From an uncultured bacterium (GTDB lineage Bacteria > Margulisbacteria > WOR-1 > CAVSGV01): a stretch of 32,000 nt of DNA. Below, in pieces: positions 4,214 to 31,543 of this stretch. Position 1 is the stretch's first letter. Every line of letters begins with the position of its first letter. The notes beneath the pieces are model-generated. The model did no database searches, had not been told where the DNA came from, and saw nothing but the letters and a program-made list of their open reading frames with translations. The stretch lies in the NCBI GenBank assembly GCA_963699255.1, contig OY969425.1:90001-122000 (forward strand), written 5' to 3'. The translations under genes and the position numbers were made by a program.

Positions 4214-4227
4214 TCAAGGAGTAGTTT

Positions 4228-11687: not shown

Positions 11688-11734
11688 CAACTTGATTTTC
11701 CGCGGAATGGAATTGCCAGAGGGGATGGGTTGAT

Positions 11735-12685: not shown

Positions 12686-13404
12686 TTTTAGCCGGCGGTG
12701 CGGGCACCAGGCTCAGGCCTTTGACACTGGCTGTCCCGAAGCCGATGATAAAGATAAACGGGAAGCCGTTTTTGCAATATATTCTCGAAGAACTTAAAAA
12801 ATACGGGGTCAGGGATATTATCCTTTGCGTCGGATATTTAGCGGATAAGTTCAAGGAATATTTTGGCGACGGCTCAAAATTGGGTATCAATCTGTCATAT
12901 TCGGTTGAGCGTGAGTTCCTCGGCACAGCGGGGGCTGTAAAACTTGCCGAGAAATATCTGGAGGATGATTTTGTATTGATGAACGGGGACACTTATTTGC
13001 CGATCGATTATGCGGAAATATATGGTGAGTTCAAGAAGTCGGGAAAAATGGGACTGATGGTCGTTTATGACAACAGGGAAAAAGTCGCCCTGGAGAATGT
13101 TTCGGTTGACGACCAGGGGCTGGTGGATGCTTACGAGAAGAAGGAGCCCTTAAAAAAAGGCGATCAGCTGGTTGAGGTCAAGACAGGCCCGTCAAAAGAT
13201 TATAAATATGTGGATGCGGGCGTATATGTTTTTAACAGGGATATTCTTAAGCTCATCGAGAGGGGCAGGTTCGTTTCTCTTGAGGGTGATGTCTATCCCG
13301 AGCTTATTAAAAGCCGGCAGCTTAAGGCACACATAACCTCTAAAAGATATTATGACCTGGGAACGCCGGAGAGAATGGAGCTAATAAAGGGGCTGCTTAA
13401 ATGA
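12673..13404 (+). CDS. hddC: Sugar-1-phosphate nucleotidyltransferase, probable D-glycero-alpha-D-manno-heptose-1-phosphate guanylyltransferase
   Basis: QAVILAGGAGTRLRPLTLAVPKPMIKINGKPFL signature. Operon context with a GHMP heptose kinase, GmhA and GmhB. GTG start overlaps the upstream gene by 13 nt. Confidence 0.75.
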   Translation: MQAVILAGGAGTRLRPLTLAVPKPMIKINGKPFLQYILEELKKYGVRDIILCVGYLADKFKEYFGDGSKLGINLSYSVEREFLGTAGAVKLAEKYLEDDFVLMNGDTYLPIDYAEIYGEFKKSGKMGLMVVYDNREKVALENVSVDDQGLVDAYEKKEPLKKGDQLVEVKTGPSKDYKYVDAGVYVFNRDILKLIERGRFVSLEGDVYPELIKSRQLKAHITSKRYYDLGTPERMELIKGLLK

Positions 13405-14381
13405 TAATCTCAAGGACGCCGTTAAGGATAAGCTTTTTTGGCGGAGGGACCGACCTTAAGGAATTCTATGGGCTTGAGGGAGGGGCGGTGCTTTCAACGG
13501 CGATCGACAAGTATATCTTTGCGACCGTGAACAAGAAATTCGATGAACACATAAGGGTTTCTTATTCTGAGACCGAGATCGTTGAGCGTGTTGATCAGAT
13601 CCGCCATGATCTTGTCAGGGAAGCGATGAAACTCGCGGGGGTGCTGAAAGGGATCGAGATGACCACGATCGCGGACATCCCGTCCCAGGGGACAGGGCTT
13701 GGTTCATCCAGCACTTTTACCGTCGGGATACTTAATGCGCTTCACGCCTATAAAGGCGAATATGTTTCCGCCGAAACTCTGGCGAACGAAGCGTGCAAAA
13801 TAGAAATAGATATCGTAGGAGAGCCGATCGGTAAACAGGACCAGTACATCGCCTCTTACGGCGGATTTCAATTCATACAATTCAACAAGGACGGCTCGGT
13901 CTTCGTTGATCCGATCGTCTGCAGCGGAGAACTGAAAGAGGAGCTTTGCGGCAATCTTATGCTTTTCTATACGGGCGTTACCCGCAGGGCGAACACGATA
14001 CTTGCCGAACAGAAAAAAAAGGCATCGAACGACAAGATAAAAGAGCTCAAAGCGCTAAAGGACCTGGCTGTTATTTCCCGCAGATCATTGGAAGTGGATC
14101 AGTCTATCGATCAATTTGGGAGATTGCTTGATGAAGGTTGGAAGTTAAAGAAATCCCTGGCGAGCGGAATATCGAACGCCGAGATCGACGCGATGTATGA
14201 AAAAGCAAAAAAGGCGGGGGCGCTGGGGGGAAAGATAACCGGGGCGGGCGGCGGAGGGTTCCTCCTGCTGTATGTCCCCGGGAACAGGCAGGAGCATGTG
14301 AGGAGCGCGCTGCATCCGCTCAGGCAGATCGATTTCAAATTTGAGCCGCAGGGAAGCAAGATAATTTACGTCACGGATTAG
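13401..14381 (+). CDS. hddA: GHMP-family sugar kinase, probable D-glycero-alpha-D-manno-heptose-7-phosphate kinase
   Basis: MIISRTPLRISFFGGGTDL N-terminus. GHMP motif PSQGTGLGSSSTF. C-terminal GKITGAGGGGFLLLY. ATGA overlap with hddC. Confidence 0.8.
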   Translation: MIISRTPLRISFFGGGTDLKEFYGLEGGAVLSTAIDKYIFATVNKKFDEHIRVSYSETEIVERVDQIRHDLVREAMKLAGVLKGIEMTTIADIPSQGTGLGSSSTFTVGILNALHAYKGEYVSAETLANEACKIEIDIVGEPIGKQDQYIASYGGFQFIQFNKDGSVFVDPIVCSGELKEELCGNLMLFYTGVTRRANTILAEQKKKASNDKIKELKALKDLAVISRRSLEVDQSIDQFGRLLDEGWKLKKSLASGISNAEIDAMYEKAKKAGALGGKITGAGGGGFLLLYVPGNRQEHVRSALHPLRQIDFKFEPQGSKIIYVTD

Positions 14382-14393
14382 GAGGGGATAACA

Positions 14394-14972
14394 ATGCCGG
14401 GAAAATTCGCGAAGCAATATCTATCCGAGCTTGTCGACAGCATAAACGATCTCCCTTTTGACGGGATCAGGGAAGTCGTGAGCGTATTGAAAGAGGCTTA
14501 CAGAAAAGGGAGACATGTCTTTATCATGGGGAACGGCGGAAGCGCGGCCACGGCGTCCCATTTTGTGTGCGACCTTTCCAAGGGAACACGGGTTTCCGGA
14601 AAAAAACATTTTAAGGCCATAGGGCTGATCGACAATGTGCCTCTTCTTACCGCGTGGAGCAACGACGTCACCTTTAAAGATGTATTTAAAGCGCAGCTCG
14701 AAAACCTTCTAAGCGCGGGGGACGTAGTCGTCGTTTTTACCGGCAGCGGTAATTCCCCGAACGTTCTGGAAGCGGCAAAATACGCCAAAAAAATTAAAGC
14801 CAAAACAATAGCTTTTACGGGGTTCAACGGGGGCAAGATCAAGAAACTGGCCGATGTTTGCCTGATTGTTCCTTCAAATAACATGGAGAGGATCGAAGAC
14901 CTCCATCTGATCCTGGAGCACCTTATCAAGCTTTACCTATGGGAGGAGATCCGTGAAGGTCGTCTTTCTTGA
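14394..14972 (+). CDS. gmhA: Phosphoheptose isomerase (SIS domain)
   Basis: IMGNGGSAATASHFVCDLSKG and FTGSGNSPNVLEA SIS motifs. 192 aa. AGGAGG SD. Confidence 0.9.
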   Translation: MPGKFAKQYLSELVDSINDLPFDGIREVVSVLKEAYRKGRHVFIMGNGGSAATASHFVCDLSKGTRVSGKKHFKAIGLIDNVPLLTAWSNDVTFKDVFKAQLENLLSAGDVVVVFTGSGNSPNVLEAAKYAKKIKAKTIAFTGFNGGKIKKLADVCLIVPSNNMERIEDLHLILEHLIKLYLWEEIREGRLS

Positions 14973-15444
14973 CAGGGACGGCGTAATAAACAAAAAGATC
15001 GAGAACGGCTACGTTCTTTACTGGAAGGACTTTGAATTCCTTCCGGACGTTGATAAGGCAATAAAGCTGCTTAACGAGAACAGGATCCCCGTCATCGTGA
15101 TAAGCAATCAAGCGTGTGTCGGAAAGGGGCTTATTACCAGGCGGAGGCTTGACGATATTAATGGAAGGATGATGGAGGAATTGAAGAAGAAAGGGGCGCA
15201 TATTGACGATATTTTCGTTTGCCCCCACAAAGCCGAGGATGACTGCGGCTGCAGGAAACCAAGAACGGGGTTGTTCAAGCAGGCTTCTGAAAAACATGAT
15301 ATTGATTTCAAGGGCTCGTTATTCATCGGGGACAGCCCGGAAGACGCGGGGGCCGGATGCGGCGCGGGATGCAATACTTATCTTTTAAAAAATGGGGAAA
15401 ACCTCATGTCCGTGGTTGAAAAGGCTTTAAAGCAGCTTAAATGA
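14953..15444 (+). CDS. gmhB: D-glycero-D-manno-heptose 1,7-bisphosphate phosphatase (HAD-IIIA)
   Basis: VFLDRDGVIN (DxDGT/V nucleophile motif). Zn-binding CPHKAEDDCGCRKPRTGL. FIGDSPED. GTG start overlaps gmhA by 20 nt. Confidence 0.85.
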   Translation: MKVVFLDRDGVINKKIENGYVLYWKDFEFLPDVDKAIKLLNENRIPVIVISNQACVGKGLITRRRLDDINGRMMEELKKKGAHIDDIFVCPHKAEDDCGCRKPRTGLFKQASEKHDIDFKGSLFIGDSPEDAGAGCGAGCNTYLLKNGENLMSVVEKALKQLK

Positions 15445-18738: not shown

Positions 18739-20028
18739 ATGAAGAAAATTCCCGAATATTTGATATACCTTTTCGTTTTTTCCCTGATCGTAGATGCGTC
18801 AGGTTTCGGGTACATTTCAAGGGTCCCTGTTCTAATTCTGCCTTTTAAATATCTATTGCTCATAGCGATAACGGTATTCTCGTTATTCAGGATCATCAGG
18901 TTTTTCTTGACCGGGACGATCCCCGTGAACCATTATGCCACGTGGATACTGGGGATCCTTATGATACCTCTGGTTTTCGGCACGGTAGGCTTTTTCAGGG
19001 GCAATGACATCTGGCTCATATTCAAGGACACTTTCGGGATCTTGTTCTATTTATTCGCTCTAATGTTCGTGTTGTTCATTAACGAGAGAGAGCAGATAAA
19101 GAAGCTCTTGTTCACTTTTTTTCTTGCGACATTTGTTGTTAATTGCGCGGTAATAGTCCTTGAGATCCTGCTTGTTAAAAATGTGATCCCCCCCGACATT
19201 CTAAATATGTTCCTGGTGAACAACGAGCTTGGTTTCATATTTTATAACAGTCCCGGTTTTTACCGGATAATGCTGCGATCGGGCATTTTCACCCAGATCG
19301 GGATCATACTGGCAATGGCGCTGTTATTTTTAAAAGATCAGAACGTTCGAATAAAACTCTGTCTGTATTTATTCCTGGCCGTGTCCGTTGTATCTCTGAT
19401 CTGTCAGAACTCAAGGGGCTTTTGGGTGGCGACTTTAGTAGCTGCGCTATTAATGCTGGTTTTTCACAATAGATATCGATATAAGAGCGCCATGATATTG
19501 CTGATTTTTATTGTTGCCGGGATCTTGTTTGTTTTTTGGGGCCAGTTCGGGGTTTTTGACGAGATCCCGATATTGGGGAGGTTATATTCAACATTTGTCT
19601 TCGATGTTTCGGAGCCGTCAAATTATATGAGAGCGGTGCAGTTCGATTATTTGACGGCAAAAGTTGCCGAGCACCCCGTTATCGGCTCGGGGTATGGCGC
19701 AATGATATATGGGTTTTATGATAGCCCCGTTTTCGAGCTGGATTATCTGGCCCTGGTCATGAAGATCGGGATTCTCGGTTTTATTTACTGGTTCGGCCTT
19801 ATGTTCTATTTGATGAGGGATGCCTTCCGGAGCTATTTTTTATGCGGTGATAAATATCTTAAAACGGTTCAAATGGCGTTCATTTTCGCTTTGGTAAGCG
19901 TTTTTATCTTAAGCGCGACAGATCCATACCTATACGGAATACTTGGGAATTCCTGCGTTGTTTTGGCTATAATCGTGTTTAATATCGTTAAGGATTCGGG
20001 TGAAAGGAAGGTTCGTCAAAAGCTATGA
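18739..20028 (+). CDS. wzy: O-antigen polymerase/ligase family membrane protein (Wzy-like)
   Basis: 429 aa with about 10-12 TM helices. The central QNSRGFWVATLVAALLMLVF and the periplasmic-loop region IGSGYGAM...ELDYLALVMKIGILGF are typical of the Wzy_C domain. Confidence 0.7.
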   Translation: MKKIPEYLIYLFVFSLIVDASGFGYISRVPVLILPFKYLLLIAITVFSLFRIIRFFLTGTIPVNHYATWILGILMIPLVFGTVGFFRGNDIWLIFKDTFGILFYLFALMFVLFINEREQIKKLLFTFFLATFVVNCAVIVLEILLVKNVIPPDILNMFLVNNELGFIFYNSPGFYRIMLRSGIFTQIGIILAMALLFLKDQNVRIKLCLYLFLAVSVVSLICQNSRGFWVATLVAALLMLVFHNRYRYKSAMILLIFIVAGILFVFWGQFGVFDEIPILGRLYSTFVFDVSEPSNYMRAVQFDYLTAKVAEHPVIGSGYGAMIYGFYDSPVFELDYLALVMKIGILGFIYWFGLMFYLMRDAFRSYFLCGDKYLKTVQMAFIFALVSVFILSATDPYLYGILGNSCVVLAIIVFNIVKDSGERKVRQKL

Positions 20029-20993
20029 TGGACGTGTCCATTTCAATAATCGCTTCGGATGAAAAGGATGTTCTGAGAAAATGCATTTACAGCATCAGGA
20101 ATACCGTCGGGAAAAACCTCGCGTATGAATTGATCGTGATCGAGAACGCGTCGACTGACGGTACCTGGCAGATGCTCAGATCCGAGTTCCCCGAAGTGAC
20201 GGTAATAAGGAATGAGGCCAGAAAAAGCTTCTGCCAGAACCATAACATGGGAATAAAAAAAAGCGCGGGCAGGTACGTCCTGATACTCAATTCAGACGTC
20301 TTTTTTCTGGACGGTTTCCTTGAGGAGCTTGTCAGGACGATCGAGCGTGATAAAAAGATCGGCGCTGTTATGGGTAAGCTTTTGCAAGGATATCCCGAAG
20401 ATCACGGGAATATCATCGATTCGACCGGGGTTCGCATATTCAGGAATCGGCGTACCATTGATAGGGGGCAGGGGGAGAAGGATAAAGGGCAGTACGATAC
20501 CGTTGAACCCATATTCTCGCCGAGCGGAGCGGCCATGCTGTGCAGGCGCGAGATGCTCGAGGACATAAGAATGGACGGCCAGTACTTTGACGAAACTTTT
20601 TACGCGTATAAAGAGGAGCTTGATCTGTGCTGGAGGGCCCGGTTATTCGGCTGGGACATGATGTATACGCCAAAGGCCGTGGCTTATCATTTAAGGGGGT
20701 GGGGGAAAGCCACCAAACGCCGGAACATCCCGAGGTTCGTGAGGCGGCATTCCTTCAAGAACAGATACCTGATGATGATCAAGAACGATCATCTGGCCAA
20801 CGTTATACGCGATATTCTCCCGATACTCTGGCACGAAGCGCAGTCTTTTGTTTATATGGTGTTCAGAGAGCCGCATTTGTTCCTGGGATGGATCCGGATA
20901 TTTGTGTTATTGCCGCTTACCCTGCGCAAAAGATCCGAGATAATGAAGAAGGCAGTGGTCGGGTCGAAAGAAATGGGCAAATGGTTCGTTTGA
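20025..20993 (+). CDS. Glycosyltransferase family 2
   Basis: VSISIIASDEKDVLRKCIYSI...YELIVIENASTDGT...NHNMGIKKSAGRYVLILNSDVFF...YKEELDLCWRARLFGW. ATGA overlap with wzy. Confidence 0.85.
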   Translation: MMDVSISIIASDEKDVLRKCIYSIRNTVGKNLAYELIVIENASTDGTWQMLRSEFPEVTVIRNEARKSFCQNHNMGIKKSAGRYVLILNSDVFFLDGFLEELVRTIERDKKIGAVMGKLLQGYPEDHGNIIDSTGVRIFRNRRTIDRGQGEKDKGQYDTVEPIFSPSGAAMLCRREMLEDIRMDGQYFDETFYAYKEELDLCWRARLFGWDMMYTPKAVAYHLRGWGKATKRRNIPRFVRRHSFKNRYLMMIKNDHLANVIRDILPILWHEAQSFVYMVFREPHLFLGWIRIFVLLPLTLRKRSEIMKKAVVGSKEMGKWFV

Positions 20994-21011
20994 ATGGATG
21001 CGTTTGAATAA

Positions 21012-21989
21012 CTAATTGTTTAAATAATATTTTATTGCTTTTTCAATCCCGGTTTTAAATTTAATTTTGTATTCATATCCAAGCTGTTTTAATTTTGTGG
21101 GATCTCCTACCCGGGAAAAAACTCCGCTTGGTTTGTCAGAAGTTCCTCGTATTTCAGGCGCATATCCGCAAATACCTGCAGCTATTTTTGCAAAATCAAT
21201 AAAACTGGTATGAATACCTGTGCACAAATTAACAGCCTCAGCATTATCAATTTTATCTATTGTTATTAATATTGCATCGATGCAATCATCGATATGGATA
21301 AAATCACGCATTTGTTCGCCTGTCCCCCAAACAGTAACAATTGGTTTCCCTTGATTAGCGATGACCCGCTTACAAATACTTGGGAATGGATAGGTATCAT
21401 CTTGATCTACTCCATAACCCGAAAAAGGACGATAAATAATTGATCTTATGCCGTTTTTCTGATGTGCCAGTTTGGCGAGATACTCACATGTCAATTTTGC
21501 CCAACCATAGCTCATATCTGGCATCCCAATGTTATTTTCAAACGAGACCATATCCTCAGTTAATGATTTGTGATCCGTTTTTTGTTGATATTCAACAGGG
21601 TAAGCCGCACTTGAACTAAAACATGCTGTCTTGCGTGGCTTTGTTTTCGCCGCCCACTCCCAGTATTCAGCGTCTATTGAAAGATCATCTGCAACTGCAA
21701 GCGGGTTGTTTTCGATCATTGATCTGCCGCCAACCATAGCGGCTAAATGAAAACAATAATCAAAATCAGTATCAAGGTGTTTATTGAAGTATTCTCGGCA
21801 ATCCATTTGATAAAAATGAAAGCTCTTGTAATCCAAAGGTTTAAACAACGGCCATAACTTTGGCGTTATTCCGCCGGTAAATTCAGCTATTTTATCGACA
21901 CAGTGGACTTCATTTCCATTTTCGAGAAGACGTTTAATTAAATGTCTCCCGACAAAACCCGCACCGCCTGTGACAAGGACCTTACGCAT
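21012..21989 (-). CDS. NAD-dependent sugar epimerase/dehydratase (extended SDR; substrate unknown)
   Basis: [29 protein letters not shown] and YxxxK (SYGWAKLTCEY). Start placed at ATG 21989 (AGGAGG SD 8 nt upstream, 8-nt overlap with the upstream gene). Low-GC gene. Confidence 0.85.
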   Translation of the reverse strand: MRKVLVTGGAGFVGRHLIKRLLENGNEVHCVDKIAEFTGGITPKLWPLFKPLDYKSFHFYQMDCREYFNKHLDTDFDYCFHLAAMVGGRSMIENNPLAVADDLSIDAEYWEWAAKTKPRKTACFSSSAAYPVEYQQKTDHKSLTEDMVSFENNIGMPDMSYGWAKLTCEYLAKLAHQKNGIRSIIYRPFSGYGVDQDDTYPFPSICKRVIANQGKPIVTVWGTGEQMRDFIHIDDCIDAILITIDKIDNAEAVNLCTGIHTSFIDFAKIAAGICGYAPEIRGTSDKPSGVFSRVGDPTKLKQLGYEYKIKFKTGIEKAIKYYLNN

Positions 21990-22908
21990 TAAAATGCCTC
22001 CTATATAATTCAAAGGCCTTGATCGATTGCTCCGGCAAGTAATTTAATATTGCATTCGGATCTGAATAGATACTTGTAACAAGCTTTAGATTGTTTTCAT
22101 AACCGAGATATTCTCGCTTCATATCCACTACAAGGTCATGAATGTTCCTTTTTTGATAAACGGATGCTTTATTGAAGAATACTTTTGCACCAAGCGCTTG
22201 CACATAGTAAGCCGCCCATATGTCATCCATTCTGCCAATGTGCGGGAAAAGGAAATAATTACGCAATATTGATCGACTTAAGAATGTATTCTGCGAATTA
22301 AATGGAGCGATCTTGTTCGATGCTATCGGAAATACAGAAGGGTCAAAATTGCATTCAGGAGCGTATATCATCCTGCAAACCGCATCAATATCTGGATCGC
22401 CATTCCAGAAATCAGCTTGTATCTCAAATTTCATCTTCTTTTTAGATATATTATTATATGAACGTTTAGGAATAAGCTGTAAAGGGTATCCCCGATGCCA
22501 TAAGTTTTTCTCATTAGTTGCTCCAACGGGGTCAAACACCGGTAAGTCCGTCTCAAAATAGTTCACCTCGATCGTCTCTCCAACCAATACGTTTTTGCCC
22601 CAATCTTCATACGGGATATTGTCATCATCAATAACGGCGATAATGTCCGCTCCCATTTCATATGCCCAGAGAAGGCCAAAATTGCGTCGCTGAATGCATT
22701 TCCATCCTATTGCTTCGGATAAGGCGCTGTCTTTCTTCTCCTGCATTTCCGGGGAGACATAGATGCCCCTTTTCAGTTTATAGTCAACAGGGGTTTTTAA
22801 ATCCCCAACTACTATCAATGTCCACTCATTCATCGCATCAAACTTTTCTATGGCTTCTGTCGGGCCATTTATTGTTGTTGTCACAATTACATTTTTTGTT
22901 TTTTTCAT
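21982..22908 (-). CDS. GT75 (reversibly glycosylated polypeptide / UDP-arabinopyranose mutase)-STELLO(DUF288)-like protein
   Basis: 308 aa and soluble. The motifs VIVTTTINGPTEAI...WTLIVVGDLKTPVDY...RRNFGLLWAYEMGADIIAVIDDDNIP...LWHRGYPLQL...WNGDPDIDAVCRM...IGRMDDIWAAYYVQ...DMKREYLGYE parallel plant RGP motifs (DDDC, VRGYPFSL, IGRYDDMWAGWCVK, NLKKEYKG). They also parallel the STELLO N-terminal pattern. Assigned from memory of those families, with no search run. Confidence 0.6.
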   Translation of the reverse strand: MKKTKNVIVTTTINGPTEAIEKFDAMNEWTLIVVGDLKTPVDYKLKRGIYVSPEMQEKKDSALSEAIGWKCIQRRNFGLLWAYEMGADIIAVIDDDNIPYEDWGKNVLVGETIEVNYFETDLPVFDPVGATNEKNLWHRGYPLQLIPKRSYNNISKKKMKFEIQADFWNGDPDIDAVCRMIYAPECNFDPSVFPIASNKIAPFNSQNTFLSRSILRNYFLFPHIGRMDDIWAAYYVQALGAKVFFNKASVYQKRNIHDLVVDMKREYLGYENNLKLVTSIYSDPNAILNYLPEQSIKAFELYRRHFNA

Positions 22909-23666
22909 CTTATCCCTTTTCCGATCAAAAGCCTTTTATTCGAACAGAATAAAACCTTTAAACCTATCCCAAAATAAAGGAAATTTCTTAGAAATGTGTT
23001 CTTTGAACCCCCCTCAGTTCTCGCCTTCCATGCAACAGGGACCTCCACCACTTTTATGCCAAGTCGTAACGGTTTGATTATTGTTTCCAGCAAAAATGGA
23101 TGTTTCAGCTCTTCCCATCTTATTTGTTGGACAATATTTACGGGAAACAGCCTATAGCCGTAAGTCATATCGGTTAGATCCGTAAAATATAAGACAGAAA
23201 ACAATTTCTGAAACAAGAAGTTCAGGAAATATTTTAACTTACCGTAGCCGTAAAAGCCACCGCCTTTGATCCATCTTGAACCGGTGATGATCCGGTCAGG
23301 GTACTTTTTTGACTCAGATATAAAGTCTTTTACTTTATCTGGCGGAGTTTCCAGGTCGCTGGCCATCATCAATATGTGACTGCCGAGCGCATGCGAAAAT
23401 GCATCGCGCAAAGCTCCGCCAAGAAAGGGAAGGTTTTGCTTTAATATCTTTATTTTGTTGCCATATTTATTACGAAGCTTTTCGCATATTTCCAGGCTCG
23501 ACCGGCTTGTTTTTTCGCATACAACTATTATAAATTCAAGTACATCTGCACTGCAATCAGCCATTATTGTTTTTACAGTTATTTCTAAAGAGGTTGTTTC
23601 ATCTGTGACAGGTAAAATCACCGATAAAGATTCGAACCTTTTGTTCGCTGGCAGTAAGTTTTTCAT
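22905..23666 (-). CDS. GT2 polyprenyl-phosphate glycosyltransferase-like (Dpm1/GtrB/ArnC-like)
   Basis: LSVILPVTDET...LEFIIVVCEKTSRSS...GGALRDAFSHALGSHILMMASDLETPP...ITGSRW...DLTDMTYGYRLF...VVEVPVAWKARTEGGSKNTF follows the Dpm1-like GT2 layout. ATGA overlap with the downstream gene. Confidence 0.7.
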   Translation of the reverse strand: MKNLLPANKRFESLSVILPVTDETTSLEITVKTIMADCSADVLEFIIVVCEKTSRSSLEICEKLRNKYGNKIKILKQNLPFLGGALRDAFSHALGSHILMMASDLETPPDKVKDFISESKKYPDRIITGSRWIKGGGFYGYGKLKYFLNFLFQKLFSVLYFTDLTDMTYGYRLFPVNIVQQIRWEELKHPFLLETIIKPLRLGIKVVEVPVAWKARTEGGSKNTFLRNFLYFGIGLKVLFCSNKRLLIGKGIR

Positions 23667-23926
23667 TTAAGCAATAATCGCATGGTCAATTTGTTGATGC
23701 ATTATACTATATTAAAACGTTTAAATTAAGCAAAAGTCAAATCAATTAGTCGAATATTTATGATAGAATACAACCAATGTTATCAATACGCATGATCCTT
23801 TTGAGCGTCGGAACGATATGCTAAGCTGGCGTCTGAGAAAAAATCGAAACGAGAAAACCCTATAAGACCAACCAGCAGATGTTGCGTTGCAAGACTGGGG
23901 ATTCCCGTGCTTTTACGGAGGCAAAG
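23667..23926. promoter_or_regulatory. AT-rich divergent promoter region of the low-GC module
   Basis: A 260-bp gap between divergent operons, the largest non-coding stretch in the window. An extended -10-like TGATAGAAT lies at 23761-23769 on the plus strand. A GGAGG SD lies 5 nt before TTG 23927. Confidence 0.4.
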
Positions 23927-25426
23927 TTGAAAAAAACAATATTGATCGCATTGGCCGCGCTAATCCTTGCAAGCTTGATCTTTGTATTTTATTCTTCTGC
24001 ACTGAAGTTGAATTTCTTATACGGTGATGATTATAATATTATCAAAGCAAGTTACTTGAATCCCGCACAATATTATTTGGGGAACTGGACGGGCGGCCGC
24101 GGGGTGGGAGGCTTTTACCGGCCGGTAATTATTTCATCGGTCAAGTTGGGTGATTTTTTGTGGGGGATCGGGCCTTTCGGATATCGTCTGTCCAATTTGA
24201 TTCTCCATGTAGCGTGCACTTTTTTTGTGTTTTTGATCGCATACCATGTCCTGAATAGCTATTTATTTGCGTTGTCCTCCGGAGCCTTATTTGCCATATT
24301 GCCGCTGAATGCAGAGACAGTGAATTGGAGCAGGTGCGATCTGGTAGCGACAATGTTCTATCTGGCGGCTTTTTATTTTTATTTATTATATTCAAAAAAG
24401 AGGTATAAGTGGGGCCTTTTGCTCTCGCTCTTATCCTTTGTTCTTTCCCTGGGATCAAAGGAATCCGCATTGTCACTGCCTTTAATCATTTTTGTTTATG
24501 AGTATTTGAATAACGGCTTTAAGAATATAAGCAGAATCATCGGGGCTTACTTCCTTGTCCTTATTCCATACTTTATTCTAAGGTATTTTTCATTGGGAAC
24601 ATTTTTTGGCGGTTATAAGGTAGGCGTTTTCAGCGCGATCACACATGCGCTTTTTGGGTATTTAAGGACTTTCCAGCTGGTGGCTTTGCCTTTCATACAG
24701 GAGAGGATTTTATTGTATTTTATTCTTGCGCCCTTGATCATTCTGGCGGTTTTGATTTTTATGGTTCATTACGTTAAAAGATACGATCCTCCAAAAACCT
24801 TTTATTTTTTCTTGATATGGCCGCTAATAACCCTTTTACCGGCTGCCCACTTACTCCCCATAGGGTTTGATTTTCGTTGTTCAAGATTTTGGTATTTACC
24901 TTCCGCGGGCATATCATGGCTTATTGCTTATTTCGCTTTTGTTGAAGGATACGGAGCTCAAAAGAAAGTAATGGCGGCAAGCAAGGTCGCCTATCTGATA
25001 TTCTTTATTTACAGCTGTTTTTTCCTCGTTCAAATTAACAATGTCTGGATGAAGGCTTCGGATATGACCAGAATAATACGGCAAGAGGCGATAAAAATAG
25101 TAGAGCGCTACCCAAAAGGCTCCAGGATATGCTTCTGGAATATCACCGACAATTACAAAGGGTGTTATGTCGGCATGCCGTTCTTAGAGCCGCCGTTTTA
25201 TGAAAGCCGATGGATCATCATGGGGTATCAAAGTGATTATTTGTCTTATTCGGACATATCGAAAAAGATCGATGTCAATGAATACGATAATTATGTTTAT
25301 AACGCATCGGAAGGGCGGTTTAATAGGGTTGCTCCGTCGTATATTAAGCGAAACGATGTCCCAAGGGTTGTTGATGATTTCAATAACTTGAAAAGATTCA
25401 AGGCGTTCTTAAAGGGGATAAAATGA
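23927..25426 (+). CDS. GT-C fold membrane glycosyltransferase (PMT/TMTC/ArnT-like), paralog 1
   Basis: Polytopic. The acidic pair just after TM1 (LNFLYGDDYNIIK), followed by FYRPV...LWGIGPFGYRLSNLILHVACTFFVFL, matches the PMT_2/TMTC-type N-terminal pattern. It has a soluble C-terminal domain of about 130 aa. Start probably TTG 23927; the track ORF begins at ATG 23879. Confidence 0.7.
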   Translation: MKKTILIALAALILASLIFVFYSSALKLNFLYGDDYNIIKASYLNPAQYYLGNWTGGRGVGGFYRPVIISSVKLGDFLWGIGPFGYRLSNLILHVACTFFVFLIAYHVLNSYLFALSSGALFAILPLNAETVNWSRCDLVATMFYLAAFYFYLLYSKKRYKWGLLLSLLSFVLSLGSKESALSLPLIIFVYEYLNNGFKNISRIIGAYFLVLIPYFILRYFSLGTFFGGYKVGVFSAITHALFGYLRTFQLVALPFIQERILLYFILAPLIILAVLIFMVHYVKRYDPPKTFYFFLIWPLITLLPAAHLLPIGFDFRCSRFWYLPSAGISWLIAYFAFVEGYGAQKKVMAASKVAYLIFFIYSCFFLVQINNVWMKASDMTRIIRQEAIKIVERYPKGSRICFWNITDNYKGCYVGMPFLEPPFYESRWIIMGYQSDYLSYSDISKKIDVNEYDNYVYNASEGRFNRVAPSYIKRNDVPRVVDDFNNLKRFKAFLKGIK

Positions 25427-26829
25427 AAGGCCCATTTAAAACCATTCGCTTGTTCCTTTTATTGTTTTTCCTTAACTTGATCATATTTGTCCGGGTCTTT
25501 CCTTCATTCTTTTATGTGGACGAGTTCGAGCTGATCTATTCACAGAGGTTCGGAAGTATACAAGAACTTATTTTCAGGATATTTGCTTCCTCGACCAGTT
25601 ATTTATTCCGCCCCATGTATTATCTAATGTTCGGCCTTTATTATAAGATATGCCTTTTTAACATGGCGTATTGTTACGCTTTGCCTTTCCTTGCCCATTT
25701 CATTGCGGCTATTTCAGTGTATTACTTTTTGTTAAGGGATGAAAACGATTCATCTTTTGCGGCGATCGGGTCGATCTTGTTCATCATATACTGCGGCGTT
25801 TGGGAGGCCGTTGGCTCCATATCCGGGATACTCTATCCCATGACGGCCATATTTTTATTGAACGCTTTCATCTGCTATTTCAACAGGCGATACTGGTTTT
25901 CGTTCTTGCTGTTTGCGATGGGATTGTTGACGCATGAAGTGTCCATCATGTTCGTTCCTTTGGTGCTGTTATATGAAAGGATGGTAAACAATAAGAGGAT
26001 GAGCTTAAGTTCATTTAAAGGCCTATATGCCAGCTCGCTTTTAACCATAGCTTTTCTTTTCTTTTATTTCTTCAAGAAACTTTTTTTCCATGCGGCGCCC
26101 ATGTCGGATAAATATGTTATAGGGCCGCATTTTTTTTGGAATGAACTGAATTACATAGCGACCTTATTTATCCCGATCATAACGAGTTATAGGATGCAGT
26201 CGGTATTACCGGGAACGATAATTAAAGCGATCGATCTCGCTAAACTTGGGGTCGTTTGCCTGGTTCCATTCGGCATTTTGGCCGTGTTCTTATATGGGCC
26301 GGGAAAAGCAAAATTTTTCACCTGTTGGGGCTTATTGACCTTGCTGCCCTTCTCGTTTTTTATTACCCCCGCGGTATCCCGTTATTTATATATTGCTTCG
26401 ATCGGATATATCGCGGGAGTGGTGTTATTTATTGATCATTTGCTCAGAAGCGACAAGTATAAAAAGATCGGCATTATAATATTTACGCTCTTATTCGTTG
26501 GGAACATTGGCGGGATGTACGCCTATCAAAAACTTTTTTATAATAAAAAGGAGGTCAGAAGACAGATAATAAATGATGTCATTGCTCAAGCCCCCAAGAT
26601 CAAACTCAATTCCCGTATATGCTTCATAGATTTGCCGATCAGGGATGATGAGATAAAAAACATGATATATCTTTGGTATAAAAGCGACAGGTACAAAATA
26701 TATACTATCAATGCTGATAATGTGCCTTACAGGCGGGGCTATGATCCCAAAAGGAGATATTCGTACGATTATGTTTTTGTCTATAATTGTGCGGGCGGAA
26801 GAACAAAGCTTGTGAACGGTCGCAATTGA
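25423..26829 (+). CDS. GT-C fold membrane glycosyltransferase (PMT/TMTC/ArnT-like), paralog 2
   Basis: Same layout as paralog 1: FFYVDEFELIY after TM1, then LFRPMYYLMFGLY...LAHFIAAISVYYFL. Its C-terminal soluble domain shares the SRICF motif with paralog 1. ATGA overlap with paralog 1. Confidence 0.7.
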   Translation: MKGPFKTIRLFLLLFFLNLIIFVRVFPSFFYVDEFELIYSQRFGSIQELIFRIFASSTSYLFRPMYYLMFGLYYKICLFNMAYCYALPFLAHFIAAISVYYFLLRDENDSSFAAIGSILFIIYCGVWEAVGSISGILYPMTAIFLLNAFICYFNRRYWFSFLLFAMGLLTHEVSIMFVPLVLLYERMVNNKRMSLSSFKGLYASSLLTIAFLFFYFFKKLFFHAAPMSDKYVIGPHFFWNELNYIATLFIPIITSYRMQSVLPGTIIKAIDLAKLGVVCLVPFGILAVFLYGPGKAKFFTCWGLLTLLPFSFFITPAVSRYLYIASIGYIAGVVLFIDHLLRSDKYKKIGIIIFTLLFVGNIGGMYAYQKLFYNKKEVRRQIINDVIAQAPKIKLNSRICFIDLPIRDDEIKNMIYLWYKSDRYKIYTINADNVPYRRGYDPKRRYSYDYVFVYNCAGGRTKLVNGRN

Positions 26830-26889
26830 TTTTTGTCTCTATCAATAGTAAAATCAATTGGTTTTAATAAGCCTGACGGAGAAAATTGT

Positions 26890-27933
26890 ATGCATGATAA
26901 AAAACAGATTGTAATGGTGACCGGTGGGGCCGGATACATTGGGGCCGTTCTTGTGAGGGAGCTTTTAAGGCAGGGATATGGGGTCAGAGTATTTGATACG
27001 CTTTATTTCGGGAAAGAATCCCTTTCCGAAATAGAAGATAAGATCGAGATCGTCCGGGGCGATGTTAGGGAGTTCCCCAGCGGGGCATTAAGCGGCGTCT
27101 CCTCTGTTATTCATCTTGGTTCGCTTTCAAATGATCCCACCGCGGAATTCGACCCGAAATCAAACCATGAGATAAACTGCGAGGGGACAAAGCGCGTTGC
27201 CGAAGCCTGTAAGAAGGCCGGGGTAAAAAGAATGACCTTCGCTTCTTCCGCGGCCGTTTACGGTTTTCATGTCGGCAGCGTTGCCGATGAGGGATTCAGA
27301 ACTAATCCTCAATCGGAATACGCGCAGTCAAAGCTTGATGCCGAAAAAGCGCTGTTGGAATTGGCGGACGGCGGATTTTGCCCCGTTATTCTTCGCCAGG
27401 CGACGGTATTCGGCCTTTCAACCCGGATGAGATGGGACCTGGTCGTGAATACGATGACAAAGGATGCTTTTAGCAAGAAGAAGCTAACTGTTTTTTGCGA
27501 AGGAGAGAATTGGAGGCCGCTTGTTTCGGTGAATGATGTCGCGAGAGCGCACATACGATGCATGGTAGCTCCGGAATCAAAGGTCAGGGGCCAGATTTTC
27601 AATGTTGTACATGAGAACCTGATGATACTTGAACTCGCAGGTTTAATGAAAGGATATCTTGATAAAAAGCAGAGGATCGAAGTTGAGGTCCTTTCCGGAG
27701 CGAAAGAGTCAAGAAGTTACAGGGTATCCGGCGAGAATATCAAGAAAGTTCTGGGCTTTGAGACGAAGTTCGGCATCGAAGACGCGGTGAACGAAATATA
27801 TTCGGCGCTTCTGCTGGGCCTCTATACGGATTTTGAGAACCCGATCTATTATAATATCGAATGGATGAAACTGCTGGCGGAAAGATCGAAAAAATCAAGC
27901 CTGGCAGGATACGGCACAAAAGGAGCCGCATGA
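26890..27933 (+). CDS. NAD-dependent sugar epimerase/dehydratase (extended SDR; substrate unknown)
   Basis: IVMVTGGAGYIGAVLVRELL, ASSAAVYG and YxxxK (YAQSKLDAE). Start placed at ATG 26890 (GGAGA SD) rather than the TTG 26833 of the track. Confidence 0.85.
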   Translation: MHDKKQIVMVTGGAGYIGAVLVRELLRQGYGVRVFDTLYFGKESLSEIEDKIEIVRGDVREFPSGALSGVSSVIHLGSLSNDPTAEFDPKSNHEINCEGTKRVAEACKKAGVKRMTFASSAAVYGFHVGSVADEGFRTNPQSEYAQSKLDAEKALLELADGGFCPVILRQATVFGLSTRMRWDLVVNTMTKDAFSKKKLTVFCEGENWRPLVSVNDVARAHIRCMVAPESKVRGQIFNVVHENLMILELAGLMKGYLDKKQRIEVEVLSGAKESRSYRVSGENIKKVLGFETKFGIEDAVNEIYSALLLGLYTDFENPIYYNIEWMKLLAERSKKSSLAGYGTKGAA

Positions 27934-28796
27934 AAATCCTTCTGATAGGCGCGGACGGGCAGCTAGGCACGGACATTCAAAAAGTGATAGACAGATCAGA
28001 ACTTATCCCTCTTACTATTGCTGACATTGATGTTACAAAAAAAGAAAGCATTTCGTCGGTTATCGGCAGGCATAAACCGGATATCGTTATCAACACATCC
28101 GCGTACCACAGGGTGGATGATTGTGAGGACAATGATGAACTTGCTTTCGCGGTCAATGCCATTGGCGTGAAGAACCTCTGTCTGTCCTGCAGGGAAAATG
28201 ATGCCGCGCTGGTCCATATAAGCACGGATTATGTTTTTGACGGCAGGAAGGGCAAGCCGTATTTCGAAACGGATTGTCCGAATCCCGGCACCGTATACGG
28301 CATTTCAAAGCTCGCGGGCGAGCTTTATGTGAGATACATGGTGAAGAAATATTTTCTTATCAGGTCATGTGGACTGTTCGGAGTGGCAGGATGCCTCGGC
28401 AAAGGCGGAGGGAATTTTATCGAGTCCATGCTCAAGCTTGGAAAAGAAAAGCCCGTATTAAGGGTCGTCGCCGACCAGATAGTCGGACCTACATATACCC
28501 TGGACCTGGCGAGCAAGATCAATGACCTTATCAGGACAGAATACTATGGCCTTTATCATGTCACAAATAAAGGAAAGTGCAGCTGGTATGACTTCGCGAA
28601 AAAAATATTCGAGTTGACCGGCACAAGAGTGAAGATCGAAAAGGCGACCACGTCGGAGTTCAAAGCAAAAGCCACAAGGCCGGCATATTCGGTCCTTGAG
28701 CACGGGAGTTTGAAGAAGGTCGGCCTTGATGACATGCGCACCTGGGATAAGGCGCTGGAAGCGTATCTCGAAGAAAAGAAACGGATAAATGGTTGA
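27930..28796 (+). CDS. rfbD: dTDP-4-dehydrorhamnose reductase
   Basis: MKILLIGADGQLGTDI...PDIVINTSAYHRVDDCE...LVHISTDYVFDG...YGISKLAGE...VADQIVGPTYTLDLA...CSWYDFAKKIF...RPAYSVL. ATG 27930 forms an ATGA overlap with the upstream SDR gene. Confidence 0.9.
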   Translation: MKILLIGADGQLGTDIQKVIDRSELIPLTIADIDVTKKESISSVIGRHKPDIVINTSAYHRVDDCEDNDELAFAVNAIGVKNLCLSCRENDAALVHISTDYVFDGRKGKPYFETDCPNPGTVYGISKLAGELYVRYMVKKYFLIRSCGLFGVAGCLGKGGGNFIESMLKLGKEKPVLRVVADQIVGPTYTLDLASKINDLIRTEYYGLYHVTNKGKCSWYDFAKKIFELTGTRVKIEKATTSEFKAKATRPAYSVLEHGSLKKVGLDDMRTWDKALEAYLEEKKRING

Positions 28797-29679
28797 TGTC
28801 TCGATCTGTATCGTAAATTACAACGCTAAAGATTTCCTGGATAACTGCATAAGATCCATCTTCGGCTCCATAAAAGACCGTTCCTATGAGGTCATAGTTG
28901 TTGACAACGCCTCGACCGATGGATCGCGGGAGATAGCGAAGAAATATCCGAGCATAAGATACATCCAAAATCCTTCAAACCTTGGATTCATTAAGGCCAA
29001 CAATATCGGGATAAAGAGTTCCGGCGGCAGATATGTCCTTTCCTTGAATAACGATACTGTGATAAAGAATGGCGCGATAGAAAAGATGGTGGATTTCATG
29101 GACAAGACTTCTGACGCGGGCGCTGTCGGCCCCAAACTGTTGAACAGCGACGGATCCATACAGATGCAGTGCAGAAGAGGGTTCCCGACGCCTTCAAGTT
29201 CACTTTTCTATTTTTTGGGTTTGAGCCGGCTTTTTCCAAAAAGCAAAATTTTCGGGGCCTATCTTCTGACCTATCTTGACGACATCGCGACATCAGAGGT
29301 CGATAGCCTTTGCGGGGCGGCCATGATGGTCCGGCGTGAGGTAATCGACAGTGTCGGGCTTATGGATGAGAACTATTTTATGTACGGAGATGACATAGAC
29401 TGGTGCTACAGGATCAAGCGGGCGGAAATGAAGGTTTATTACCTGCCGGAAGCGGAAATGATCCATTACGGTGGAAGAGGGGGCAGCCGGCGGCAGAGTT
29501 ACCGCAACATATTCGAATTCCATCGCGCGATGGCGGTGTTTTACAGGAAGCACTATTCTAAAGGTTGCCTTTTCCTGATGAACTGGTTTGTTTATGCGGG
29601 AATTTGGCTGAAATGTGCTGTAGAATTGATCCGCAATATGTTCAGGAAAGAAAAGTATGTAGGGACGAAAAAGCCTTAA
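28789..29679 (+). CDS. Glycosyltransferase family 2 (rhamnosyltransferase-like)
   Basis: VSICIVNYNAKDFLDNCIRSI...YEVIVVDNASTDGS...LGFIKANNIG...SLNNDTVI...GDDIDWCYRIKRAEM. 8-nt overlap with rfbD. Confidence 0.85.
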   Translation: MVDVSICIVNYNAKDFLDNCIRSIFGSIKDRSYEVIVVDNASTDGSREIAKKYPSIRYIQNPSNLGFIKANNIGIKSSGGRYVLSLNNDTVIKNGAIEKMVDFMDKTSDAGAVGPKLLNSDGSIQMQCRRGFPTPSSSLFYFLGLSRLFPKSKIFGAYLLTYLDDIATSEVDSLCGAAMMVRREVIDSVGLMDENYFMYGDDIDWCYRIKRAEMKVYYLPEAEMIHYGGRGGSRRQSYRNIFEFHRAMAVFYRKHYSKGCLFLMNWFVYAGIWLKCAVELIRNMFRKEKYVGTKKP

Positions 29680-29693
29680 AAATGATATAATAA

Positions 29694-29790
29694 CCTCACT
29701 TCTAGCCTCTCTCCTATAAATAGGAGAGAGGAAATGTAACTATAGTTTTGCTTCCCTTCTCCTAATATAGGAGAAGGGCTAGGGATGAGG
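29694..29790 (+). repeat. 97-nt structured repeat, copy 2
   Basis: CCTCACTTCTAG | CCTCTCTCCTA-taaa-TAGGAGAGAGG | linker | CCCTTCTCCTA-ata-TAGGAGAAGGG | CTAGGGATGAGG. It has the same length, orientation and architecture as copy 1 and ends 11 nt before the rfbA ATG. Confidence 0.85.
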
Positions 29791-29801
29791 TGGGAGGAAC
29801 T

Positions 29802-30521
29802 ATGAAAGGCGTCATACTGGCTGGCGGGACGGGTTCAAGACTGTATCCTTTGACAAAAGTGACCAACAAACATCTTCTGCCTGTTGCCAGAAAGCCGATG
29901 ATATACCATCCGATCGAGAAACTGAAACAGGCCGGCATCGACGAGATCCTGATCGTGACGGGTGTAGAGCACATGGGGGATGTGGTGACGCTTCTGGGAA
30001 GCGGAAAGGAATTCGGCTGCAGGTTCACATATAAGGTGCAGGATGAAGCAGGAGGGATCGCACAGGCGCTGGGCATTGCGGAACATTTCTCTAACGGGGA
30101 AAAGATCCTGGTTATACTGGGAGATAATATTTTTGAGGAAGATCTATCGAAGATCGTATCTAAATTCGAGGGACAATCGTCCGGAGCAAAGCTGTTACTG
30201 AAAGAAGTAAAAGATCCGAACAGGTTCGGAGTCGCTGAGATCAAGGGGGATAAGATAGTCGGGATCGAGGAAAAGCCCAAAAAACCGAAAAGCAACCTGA
30301 TAGTGACAGGCATATACATGTACAACACCGACGTTTTCAAGATCATTAGAAAGCTAAGACCATCCACAAGGGGAGAACTGGAAATAACCGATGTGAACAA
30401 TGAATACATAAAACGCGGAGAAATAACGTATGAGATAATGCGGGGTTGGTGGACCGACGCGGGGACGTTTGAAACTCTTGAGCTGGCAAGCAGACTTGTT
30501 GAAGGGCGAGCGGCAAAGTGA
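29802..30521 (+). CDS. rfbA: Glucose-1-phosphate thymidylyltransferase (short form)
   Basis: MKGVILAGGTGSRLYPLTKVTNKHLLPVARKPMIYHPIEKL...QDEAGGIAQAL...LGDNIF...RFGVAE...EEKPKKPKSNL. Start at ATG 29802 (GGGAGG SD); the track ORF begins at GTG 29790 inside the repeat. Confidence 0.85.
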   Translation: MKGVILAGGTGSRLYPLTKVTNKHLLPVARKPMIYHPIEKLKQAGIDEILIVTGVEHMGDVVTLLGSGKEFGCRFTYKVQDEAGGIAQALGIAEHFSNGEKILVILGDNIFEEDLSKIVSKFEGQSSGAKLLLKEVKDPNRFGVAEIKGDKIVGIEEKPKKPKSNLIVTGIYMYNTDVFKIIRKLRPSTRGELEITDVNNEYIKRGEITYEIMRGWWTDAGTFETLELASRLVEGRAAK

Positions 30522-31543
30522 AAAGGATACTGGTCACAGGCGGCTGCGGATTCATCGGCAGCAATTTTATCAGACATGTAATCAATAAGGATTACTTCAT
30601 CTGCAACCTTGATGATCTGACCTACGCGGGCAATCTTGAGAATCTAAGTGACATTGCCGGCAAAAAGAACTACAGGTTCGTTAAGGGGGATATCGGCGAT
30701 CCGAAGATGGTCCGGAAGACGCTGACAGATTTTCACATTGACGCTATCATTAATTTTGCAGCTGAATCGCATGTTGACAGGAGCATATTAGGGCCCGAGA
30801 TATTCACAAGAACGAACGTTCTGGGCGCTCAGGTGCTTCTTGATGTTTCCCGGGAGCTGTGGTCAAAGAACTCCTTCAGCGGGAATAAGTTCATTCAAGT
30901 CTCCACAGATGAGGTTTACGGCTCTCTTGGCAGAACGGGCAAGTTCAGGGAAGACACGCCTCTCTCGGCGAACAGCCCTTATTCCGCGAGCAAAGCGGCT
31001 GCCGACCTTCTGGCCATGTCGTATCATAATACGTTCGGTTTTCCGGCGGTCATATCCAGGTGTTCAAATAACTACGGGCCTTATCAGTTTCCGGAGAAGT
31101 TCATACCTTTAATGATCATCAACGCGCTGTCAGGGCGTAGGCTTCCCGTATATGGGGACGGCTTGAACGTAAGGGACTGGCTGCATGTGGAGGACCATTG
31201 CAGCGCGATTGAAACCATACTTAAGAAAGGGAAGATCGGGGAGGTCTACAATATCGGCGGAAGCAACGAATGGAAGAACATCGATGTGGTCAAAGAAATA
31301 TTGAAGCTCCTCAACAAACCCGAATCGCTCATTGATTTTGTGACCGACAGGCTCGGGCACGATAGGCGGTACGCCATGGATGCGGGAAAGATCAGGAAAG
31401 AACTTGGATGGTGGCCAAAGCACAGGTTTGATGAGGGATTGAAGGAGACGATAGGGTGGTATCTGGAAAACAAAAGCTGGTGGAAGAAGATAATCAGCGG
31501 CGAATATAAGAGCTACTACAAGAAAATGTATAATGAAAGATGA
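30518..31543 (+). CDS. rfbB: dTDP-glucose 4,6-dehydratase
   Basis: ILVTGGCGFIGSNFIRHV...LTYAGNLENL...NFAAESHVDRSI...VSTDEVYGSL...SPYSASKAAADLL...RCSNNYGPYQFPEKFIPLMI...VYGDGLNVRDWLHVEDHC...DRLGHDRRYAMD. GTGA overlap with rfbA. Confidence 0.95.
   Translation: MKRILVTGGCGFIGSNFIRHVINKDYFICNLDDLTYAGNLENLSDIAGKKNYRFVKGDIGDPKMVRKTLTDFHIDAIINFAAESHVDRSILGPEIFTRTNVLGAQVLLDVSRELWSKNSFSGNKFIQVSTDEVYGSLGRTGKFREDTPLSANSPYSASKAAADLLAMSYHNTFGFPAVISRCSNNYGPYQFPEKFIPLMIINALSGRRLPVYGDGLNVRDWLHVEDHCSAIETILKKGKIGEVYNIGGSNEWKNIDVVKEILKLLNKPESLIDFVTDRLGHDRRYAMDAGKIRKELGWWPKHRFDEGLKETIGWYLENKSWWKKIISGEYKSYYKKMYNER

Follow-up and report, generated by a model that had tools for sequence, protein, structure and literature searches.

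A GT75-like putative mutase in an exchanged sugar-donor operon of a Margulisbacteria polysaccharide locus: a candidate route to lipid-linked furanoses

We analyzed a 32,000-nucleotide stretch of DNA (the window: contig OY969425.1 of assembly GCA_963699255.1, positions 90,001 to 122,000) from an uncultured bacterium of the WOR-1 lineage of Margulisbacteria. Within it, a low-G+C region at positions 20994–26889 carries five genes of a polysaccharide locus. Three of them, named here the trio, lie on the minus strand and encode a family 2 glycosyltransferase (GT2), a GT75-like protein and a short-chain dehydrogenase/reductase (SDR), while two on the plus strand encode polytopic membrane proteins, GT-C1 and GT-C2. 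On balance, we favor a composite origin for this region, with an exchanged donor trio, a resident GT-C1 and a GT-C2 belonging to the locus backbone, and a function in supplying a lipid-linked furanose. The trio would be foreign, acquired from a lower-GC relative, and would have displaced a donor operon composed of a nucleoside diphosphate (NDP)-sugar dehydrogenase, an SDR and a GT2. The novelty lies in a GT75-type mutase within a donor operon of the Arn, Gtr or Pgf type; such an enzyme implies that the lipid carries a furanose, formed at the level of the nucleotide sugar. An initial annotation of the window had recognized the GT75 relationship of the second gene and had not drawn from it the implied furanose donor.

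According to the proposed scheme, the SDR would tailor a common nucleotide sugar and a metal-dependent GT75-type mutase would contract the NDP-pyranose to the NDP-furanose. The GT2 would then move the furanose onto polyprenyl phosphate, a transfer that would pull the unfavorable mutase equilibrium forward. The lipid-linked sugar would be carried across the membrane by a flippase, in other loci probably a protein with an LPG_synthase_TM domain, and GT-C1 would pass it to the lipopolysaccharide (LPS) or polysaccharide made by the locus. GT-C2 would be a GT-C enzyme of the conserved locus backbone.

The sole solved relative of the GT75-like protein is MtdL, the first GT75 NDP-pyranose mutase with a solved structure (PMC9937993). 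It was matched at 9e-17 by phmmer against the Protein Data Bank (PDB; chains labelled "Transglycosylse"), and at E = 1.7e-31 by a profile of 29 family members, over profile positions 27–293 of 305. The residue roles described for MtdL (PMC9937993) were mapped onto the window protein and 72 homologues. Thirteen of the 16 aligned key residues are identical in the window protein and these are invariant in 73 homologues: in MtdL numbering, R90, D109-D110-D111-N112, R159, D195, S228-Q229, R257, D260 and R289 are invariant in the family, and the equivalent of H292 is kept in 71/73. Among these conserved positions are the GT-A type DDD-N motif, the nucleophilic Arg, the Asp that acts as base, and the Arg, Arg and His that bind diphosphate. 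The proposed nucleophile Arg159 and base Asp260 of MtdL (PMC9937993), together with D195 and R257, correspond to R139, D229, D173 and R226 of the window protein, all of them found in 73/73 homologues. In the metal site, D96 (MtdL D111) is conserved, while the Mn ligand H287 is replaced by an invariant Gln (Q252) that could still bind metal. Other near-family-wide changes are S86 to Cys (C71 in the window protein), D87 to Ile (I72) and N42 to Lys (K38). Judged from sequence, these proteins form a distinct, tightly conserved GT75-like subfamily with a predicted intact catalytic core and a sugar and nucleotide pocket predicted to be unlike that of MtdL. The subfamily has thousands of members and is unnamed in databases. 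A search of a 90%-identity clustered set gave 5,407 homologues at E ≤ 1e-3, every one among the matches listed being "hypothetical", and the 50%-identity representative set contains 192 clusters at E ≤ 1e-30 and 2,486 at E ≤ 1e-3.

The GT2 of the trio matches Pfam Glycos_transf_2 (1.4e-14). Its best solved relatives are the dolichyl-phosphate mannose synthase (DPMS) of Pyrococcus (3.1e-11) and then ArnC, in agreement with the Dpm1/ArnC type initially assigned to it. Residues 11–224 align to residues 20–232 of DPMS 5mlz, covering the whole catalytic domain, with MASDLETPP, GSRWIKGG and RTEGGSKN for the motifs DxD-L-Q/E-x-P-P, GSR..GG and R..G.SK, the first Asp of DxD being Ala. The top NCBIfam matches are AglJ, dolichyl-phosphate hexose transferase, ArnC and PgfS, all below their curated cut-offs. 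The SDR has its best NCBIfam match in GDP-L-fucose synthase (GFS; 1.2e-29, far under the curated cut-off) and its PDB relatives, at 1e-20 to 1e-14, include GalE, UDP-GlcA 4-epimerase, UXS, GFS and GDP-mannose 3,5-epimerase (GME), none of them prominent. The SDR family retains the Ser and YxxxK catalytic motifs and lacks the acid/base residues of both GFS (Cys and His) and GME (Cys and Lys).

Sequence searches of the PDB returned no match for GT-C1 or GT-C2. GT-C1 aligns to Pfam PMT_2 at E = 0.0097 (16.6 bits, below the 26.1 cut-off), and no Pfam or NCBIfam match was found for GT-C2. The GT-C fold initially proposed for both proteins is supported by structure prediction. The AF2 model of GT-C1 (pLDDT 83.7, pTM 0.87) gave 13 PDB matches at E ≤ 1e-3, all of them GT-C enzymes (STT3, ArnT, PglB). 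With the model of GT-C2 (pLDDT 71.3, pTM 0.76), the top nine PDB matches are likewise all GT-C, namely ALG12 (7e-4), STT3, ArnT, PglB, Pmt4, AftA and DPY19, although these are weak (best E 7e-4, TM-scores about 0.4). The invariant D50 and nearly invariant D51 of GT-C1 are positioned just past the first transmembrane helix (TM1), and the invariant D33 of GT-C2 is also found past TM1, the placement of these residues in the first extracytoplasmic loop being read from the models. The two proteins were initially described as products of duplicated genes. They share 24% identity, confined to the C-terminal part, which does not fit a recent duplication.

One GT-C1 homologue, P0128 (45% identity), is translationally coupled to lpxB and overlaps its end in a lipid A operon (L091:335–9189) with the order lpxD, GT4 gene, lpxC, fabZ/lpxA, lpxB, P0128. 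This position at the end of an lpx operon suggests lipid A or the LPS core as the target of the GT-C1 family. Taken with the wzx, wzy, heptose and rhamnose genes of the window, it indicates that the acceptor is probably LPS or the polysaccharide of this locus.

The association of the three donor genes extends far beyond the window. Mutase-bearing loci numbered 80, from more than 12 phyla, the carriers including Margulisbacteria, Lentisphaerae, Verrucomicrobia, Kiritimatiellae, Planctomycetes, Bacteroidetes, Chlorobi, Acidobacteria, Actinobacteria, Alpha-, Gamma- and Deltaproteobacteria, Prochlorococcus, Pelagibacteraceae and Peribacteria, and also Acidimicrobiia. Identity to the window mutase is 44–75% across loci and about 58–76% in most. 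A GT2 gene lies immediately upstream of the mutase gene in 62/73 testable loci, and the mutase gene is immediately followed by an SDR gene of the same strand in 46 of 70. The first kb next to the trio has 0.35 large polytopic membrane proteins per kb, compared with 0.03–0.07 at 2–5 kb, and one immediately adjoins the trio in 18 of the 31 complete loci. These neighbors are highly divergent in sequence: the 83 large polytopic ones include 23 PMT_2, five GT87, three PMT and two DUF2142 proteins, and the commonest Pfam families among 95 immediate neighbors are PMT_2 (11) and LPG_synthase_TM (9), the flippase-like domain of MprF. In WOR-1, PMT_2, GT2, mutase and SDR genes are grouped together among housekeeping genes. 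The co-occurrence of GT75-like, Dpm1-like and GT-C genes envisaged at the outset was recovered as a unit conserved across phyla in the order GT2-mutase-SDR, with GT-C genes or MprF-type flippase-like genes as its usual neighbors. No sugar-supply gene recurs beside the trio across loci. A common nucleotide sugar is the probable starting substrate.

From this conservation we put forward, with less confidence than the composite reading of the window itself, that GT2, GT75-like mutase and SDR may constitute a widespread unnamed bacterial pathway producing polyprenyl-phosphate furanose donors, with MprF-type export and lineage-specific use by GT-C enzymes. If lipid-linked furanoses are made, the fixed operon offers a pathway in which each step is directly testable. 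It would then represent a second, independent route to such lipids besides mycobacterial decaprenyl-phosphate arabinofuranose, and would bring GT75 mutases, so far tied to two antibiotic pathways, into general cell-envelope biology. Mammals lack furanoses, which makes the enzymes and their products potential targets and antigens. Cultured carriers include Ferrimicrobium acidiphilum and, with a mutase gene devoid of adjacent trio partners, Nitratireductor sp. XY-223.

Several features of these loci were observed alongside. The gene of an LPG_synthase_TM protein of ~338 residues abuts the trio in 11 of ~80 loci from Alphaproteobacteria, Planctomycetes, one Deltaproteobacterium and Prochlorococcus (L035:6194–7210, L044:6186–7202, L051:6139–7194, L021:6182–7168, L080:6955–7968, L029:349–1365 and L039:9912–10916); this protein is a candidate flippase, or a candidate membrane anchor for the soluble-looking GT2. 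Six loci (L072, L079, L081, L034, L037 and L073, among them that of Nitratireductor) carry a mutase gene (44–66% identity) with no adjacent GT2 or SDR gene, hence the trio is not universal for the mutase family. In L019, L024, L038, L080 and L083, the mutase or the SDR was matched by tblastn in several adjacent pieces, which could reflect pseudogenes or indel errors of long-read assemblies. In two loci, the multi-TM neighbors of the trio include UbiA-family prenyltransferases; the mycobacterial pathway to lipid-linked arabinofuranose begins with an enzyme of the UbiA type.

The base composition singles out the region and, inside it, the trio. The G+C content is 39.45% within 20994–26889 versus 48.08% for the remaining window, and the minimum among all 5.9-kb sliding windows is the one starting at 21001. 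The eight hand counts of the initial annotation were exact (13, 20, 22, 16 and 24 G+C inside; 30, 36 and 31 outside). Its strand switch is also real: the trio genes are the only true minus-strand genes from 4999 to the window end, a further minus-strand open reading frame (29762–30577) being spurious and overlapping rmlA. Genes of the region overlap by 8 nucleotides (ATGCGTAA) in one case and by ATGA in two. The divergent spacer is 212 bp long with the GT-C1 ATG at 23879 and 260 bp with the TTG at 23927, and the 260-bp gap described earlier holds if GT-C1 begins at this TTG, where the homologue from the relative L085 starts aligning. Between 23667 and 23878 the spacer is AT-rich, with 34% G+C. 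Promoter and terminator scans gave nothing informative. At third codon positions, the G+C fraction (GC3) of the minus-strand genes is 0.313, 0.411 and 0.413, compared with a mean of 0.563 (sd 0.046, minimum 0.458) for 27 other window genes. With these GC3 values of 0.31–0.41, an amino-acid bias does not by itself account for the low G+C of the trio, although it explains much for the GT-C genes, whose GC3 is 0.479 and 0.510. Their low G+C resides mostly in first codon positions (0.39 in GT-C1 and 0.36 in GT-C2), a consequence of the hydrophobic amino-acid composition. In 31 other genomes, the G+C of the trio follows that of the host (r = 0.985, mean difference -0.015 ± 0.024), while the difference in the window is about -0.09. 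This offset and the GC3 values support the presence of foreign DNA claimed initially. The closest homologues (73–76% identity) come from low-GC Margulisbacteria.

Comparison with related loci delimits the exchanged block. DNA homology to L085 in blastn spans 18739–20998, stops and restarts at 23916, giving breakpoints at 20998/20999 and 23915/23916. Flanking genes are 77–91% identical to those of L085 and 56–71% to those of L086 at the amino-acid level. In both relatives, the slot contains genes for an NDP-sugar dehydrogenase, an SDR and a PgfS/ArnC/PpgS-like GT2, followed by GT-C1 (71% identity in L085, 47% in L086) and GT-C2 (44% and 38%), all on the plus strand. The stop at 20998 and restart at 23916 indicate that the trio replaced an alternative donor operon of similar length. 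L087 has an empty slot, with neither trio nor GT-C1: its left-flank GT2 directly precedes GT-C2 (69% identity), and DNA homology with the window is unbroken from 25463 to 29447. L088 has a GT-C2 homologue (51% identity) before the SDR-RmlD pair and other modification genes upstream. Three allelic states are therefore seen among relatives, the alternative trio with GT-C1 (L085, L086), the empty slot (L087) and the other modification genes (L088). From the trio-less GT-C2 of L087 and L088, and the presence of GT-C1 beside either trio, we deduce that the accessory module consists of a donor trio plus GT-C1 and that GT-C2 belongs to the backbone. No boundary repeats or mobile-element remnants were found flanking the trio, and entry was likely by recombination in the conserved flanks. 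Donor-synthesis operons appear in this way to be exchangeable as modules beside a resident GT-C, a simple route to diversify surface glycans.

The synteny disagrees with the single horizontally acquired five-gene cassette of the initial annotation, since only the trio with its spacer (20999–23915) is exchanged against L085, L086 and L087. We regard acquisition of the whole block at once as quite unlikely. It would account for the low overall G+C of all five genes (0.39–0.41), for GT-C1 and GT-C2 being less similar to L085 (71% and 44%) than the flanking genes are, and for a GT-C GC3 (0.48 and 0.51) near the low end of the window. Yet both GT-C genes hold the same positions in relatives with a different donor trio, GT-C2 stays between the left-flank GT2 and the right-flank SDR at the empty slot of L087, with homology unbroken over 25463–29447, and their low G+C is mainly in first codon positions. 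A recombination mosaic fits these data better than a single insertion.

Two further observations concern the same slot. DNA homology with L085 extends over GT-C1 and the initial ~400 bp of GT-C2, is lost over 25816–26912 and reappears on the right-hand side at 26912; with 44% identity to L085 and 69% to L087, GT-C2 looks like a recombinant or mosaic allele. Upstream of GT-C2, L088:1944–8953 (and L089 alike) encodes a PMT_2 GT-C, a radical SAM enzyme, an 806-residue methyltransferase/SDR fusion, a GT2 and a methyltransferase, and this position looks like a hot spot of exchangeable genes for glycan modification within the locus.

A number of observations weigh against the lipid-linked furanose scheme. 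No Pfam or NCBIfam match was obtained for the GT75-like protein, even at E = 10, and no precomputed Pfam domain is present on any of 120 listed homologues. Pfam includes an RGP model for GT75, which the protein does not match; its place beside GT75 comes from the PDB matches to MtdL, by which the initial assignment was borne out. The change of H287 to an invariant Gln and of Asp87 to an invariant Ile also counts on this side, as MtdL activity is abolished by D87N and D87S (PMC9937993). Both changes, and the lack of a Pfam match, would suit an arginine (auto)glycosyltransferase or another NDP-sugar enzyme that is not a mutase, in which case the lipid-linked sugar would stay a pyranose. GT75 enzymes are indeed known to self-glycosylate on a conserved Arg (PMC9937993). 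We consider this reading unlikely, because every MtdL residue of ring opening and contraction is invariant, plant mutases likewise carry a residue other than Asp, namely Ser, at the position of Asp87 (PMC9937993), and the strict three-gene operon with a sugar-loading GT2 resembles a donor-making pathway.

The GT2 of the trio brings two adverse points of its own. Its scores are far from the NCBIfam cut-offs (38 bits against 325 for AglJ, 31 against 529 for ArnC and 25.6 against 500 for PgfS), and it has no clear TM anchor, ending at residue 253 with a short hydrophobic tail just past the catalytic domain. A C-terminal TM anchor is present in GtrB, ArnC and archaeal DPMS and absent in DPM1-type enzymes. 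An ordinary cytoplasmic glycosyltransferase, adding a sugar (possibly a furanose) to an undecaprenyl-diphosphate-linked repeat unit next to unrelated GT-C genes, would be in line with these scores, with the absence of a C-terminal TM domain such as DPMS has in 5mlz, and with the several other GT2 genes of the locus. It is very unlikely in our view. All of the best matches are polyprenyl-phosphate sugar synthases and the whole DPMS catalytic domain is aligned; GT-C and flippase-like genes are strongly enriched beside the trio across numerous phyla, also in housekeeping contexts with no polysaccharide locus; and the PgfS/ArnC/PpgS-like GT2 of the alternative trio also adjoins GT-C1. The remaining adverse points to the lipid-linked furanose scheme concern its other steps. 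No specific reaction could be retained for the SDR, which stands at about the same distance from 4-epimerases, decarboxylases, GFS and GME. The 32-kb window has neither a GtrA-type nor an MprF-type (LPG_synthase_TM) flippase gene, the lack of the former having been correctly reported in the initial annotation. GT-C1 is 71% identical to the L085 gene despite the different donor trio, and the WOR-1 GT-C beside the trio is not a GT-C1 orthologue, with no match in the homology search.

Parts of the module resemble several known systems. The bacterial NDP-pyranose mutases of GT75, MtdL in the A201A pathway and Hyg20 in that of hygromycin A (PMC9937993), are related in sequence to the window protein via MtdL, which is longer (about 376 residues against 308). 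They act in antibiotic biosynthesis, whereas a context of cell-envelope glycosylation with GT2 and GT-C is found here. As of 2023, they were the only two characterized bacterial GT75 enzymes (PMC9937993). The Arn system has the same succession of nucleotide-sugar tailoring, GT2 loading of undecaprenyl phosphate and periplasmic GT-C transfer to LPS, and the best solved relatives include ArnC and ArnT. Unlike Arn, the module has no formyltransferase/decarboxylase, aminotransferase, deformylase or ArnE/F flippase, and has a putative ring-contracting mutase instead; none of ArnA, ArnB, ArnD, ArnE and ArnF is encoded in the module, the only ArnA-like match being the SDR at 10764, outside it. The Rgt system of Rhizobium follows a logic similar to Arn. 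The Gtr system (GtrA, GtrB, GtrC) shares a GtrB-like GT2, a polytopic transferase and serotype-like polysaccharide variation, but the module is devoid of GtrA, is not phage-borne and has extra sugar-tailoring enzymes.

The initial annotation knew no described system with this gene combination. In fact, an SDR, a GT-A GT2 and two GT-C proteins with no GtrA make up the Pgf operon of Streptococcus mutans (PgfS, PgfE, PgfM1, PgfM2; PMC5856776, PMC12041528), so that only the mutase is new. The Pgf system has no mutase and also differs by its YfhO-type GT-C proteins and by its acceptors, the Ser/Thr-rich proteins of a Gram-positive bacterium. Mycobacterial decaprenyl-phosphate arabinofuranose (DPA) is a lipid-phosphate furanose donor for the Emb and Aft GT-C enzymes outside the membrane; its synthesis takes place on the lipid, beginning with a UbiA-type transferase that uses PRPP and followed by epimerization by DprE1 and DprE2. 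The module would share with it a lipid-linked furanose for extracytoplasmic GT-C enzymes, and AftA, AftD and Emb are among the fold matches obtained here. In contrast to DPA, the furanose would arise at the nucleotide-sugar level by the GT75 mutase, followed by GT2 transfer. No description of the cassette, or of a bacterial GT75 with polyprenyl or GT-C partners, was found in the literature searched, subscription journals being outside its coverage.

Table 1. Features of the low-G+C region and its flanks (window positions)
Feature	Position	Strand	Details
Left flank: polysaccharide-locus GT2	20025–20993	+	84% identity to L085 gene
Exchanged block, trio and AT-rich divergent spacer	20999–23915	.	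38.8% G+C; blastn homology break vs L085
Extended SDR, third trio gene	21012–21989	-	325 aa from ATG at 21989; Pfam Epimerase 1.5e-34
GT75-like putative NDP-sugar pyranose-furanose mutase	21982–22908	-	308 aa; MtdL match
DPMS/ArnC-like GT2, putative polyprenyl-phosphate glycosyltransferase, first trio gene	22905–23666	-	253 aa
GT-C1, resident transferase of variable slot	23879–25426	+	515 aa (499 aa from TTG 23927)
GT-C2, locus-backbone GT-C fold membrane protein	25423–26829	+	468 aa
Right flank: SDR	26890–27933	+	66–67% identity to L085, L086 genes
RmlD, after right-flank SDR	27930–28796

The window also contains ugd, a UXS-like SDR gene, hddC, hddA, gmhA, gmhB, wzx, wzy, several glycosyltransferase genes, rmlA, rmlB and rmlD. 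At 9453–12685, a UDP-glucose 6-dehydrogenase gene (TuaD-like, 5.6e-169) abuts a UXS/ArnA-like SDR gene, which is followed by a GalE-like SDR gene. By their sequence relationships, these genes could supply UDP-xylose or UDP-L-arabinose, which would fit an arabinofuranose donor. A full route from UDP-xylose through UDP-L-arabinopyranose to UDP-L-arabinofuranose, based on the ugd and UXS-like genes at 9453–11687, was set aside as speculative, as no sugar-supply gene recurs elsewhere. The next genes, at 12673–15444, encode an HddC-like nucleotidyltransferase, an HddA-like kinase, GmhA and GmhB, the set for GDP-D-glycero-alpha-D-manno-heptose. At the other end of the window, positions 240–4695 are occupied by genes of the flagellar basal body and its export apparatus (fliF, a short fliG-like open reading frame of 154 aa, fliH, fliI and fliJ), upstream of recG, rsmD, coaD and rph.

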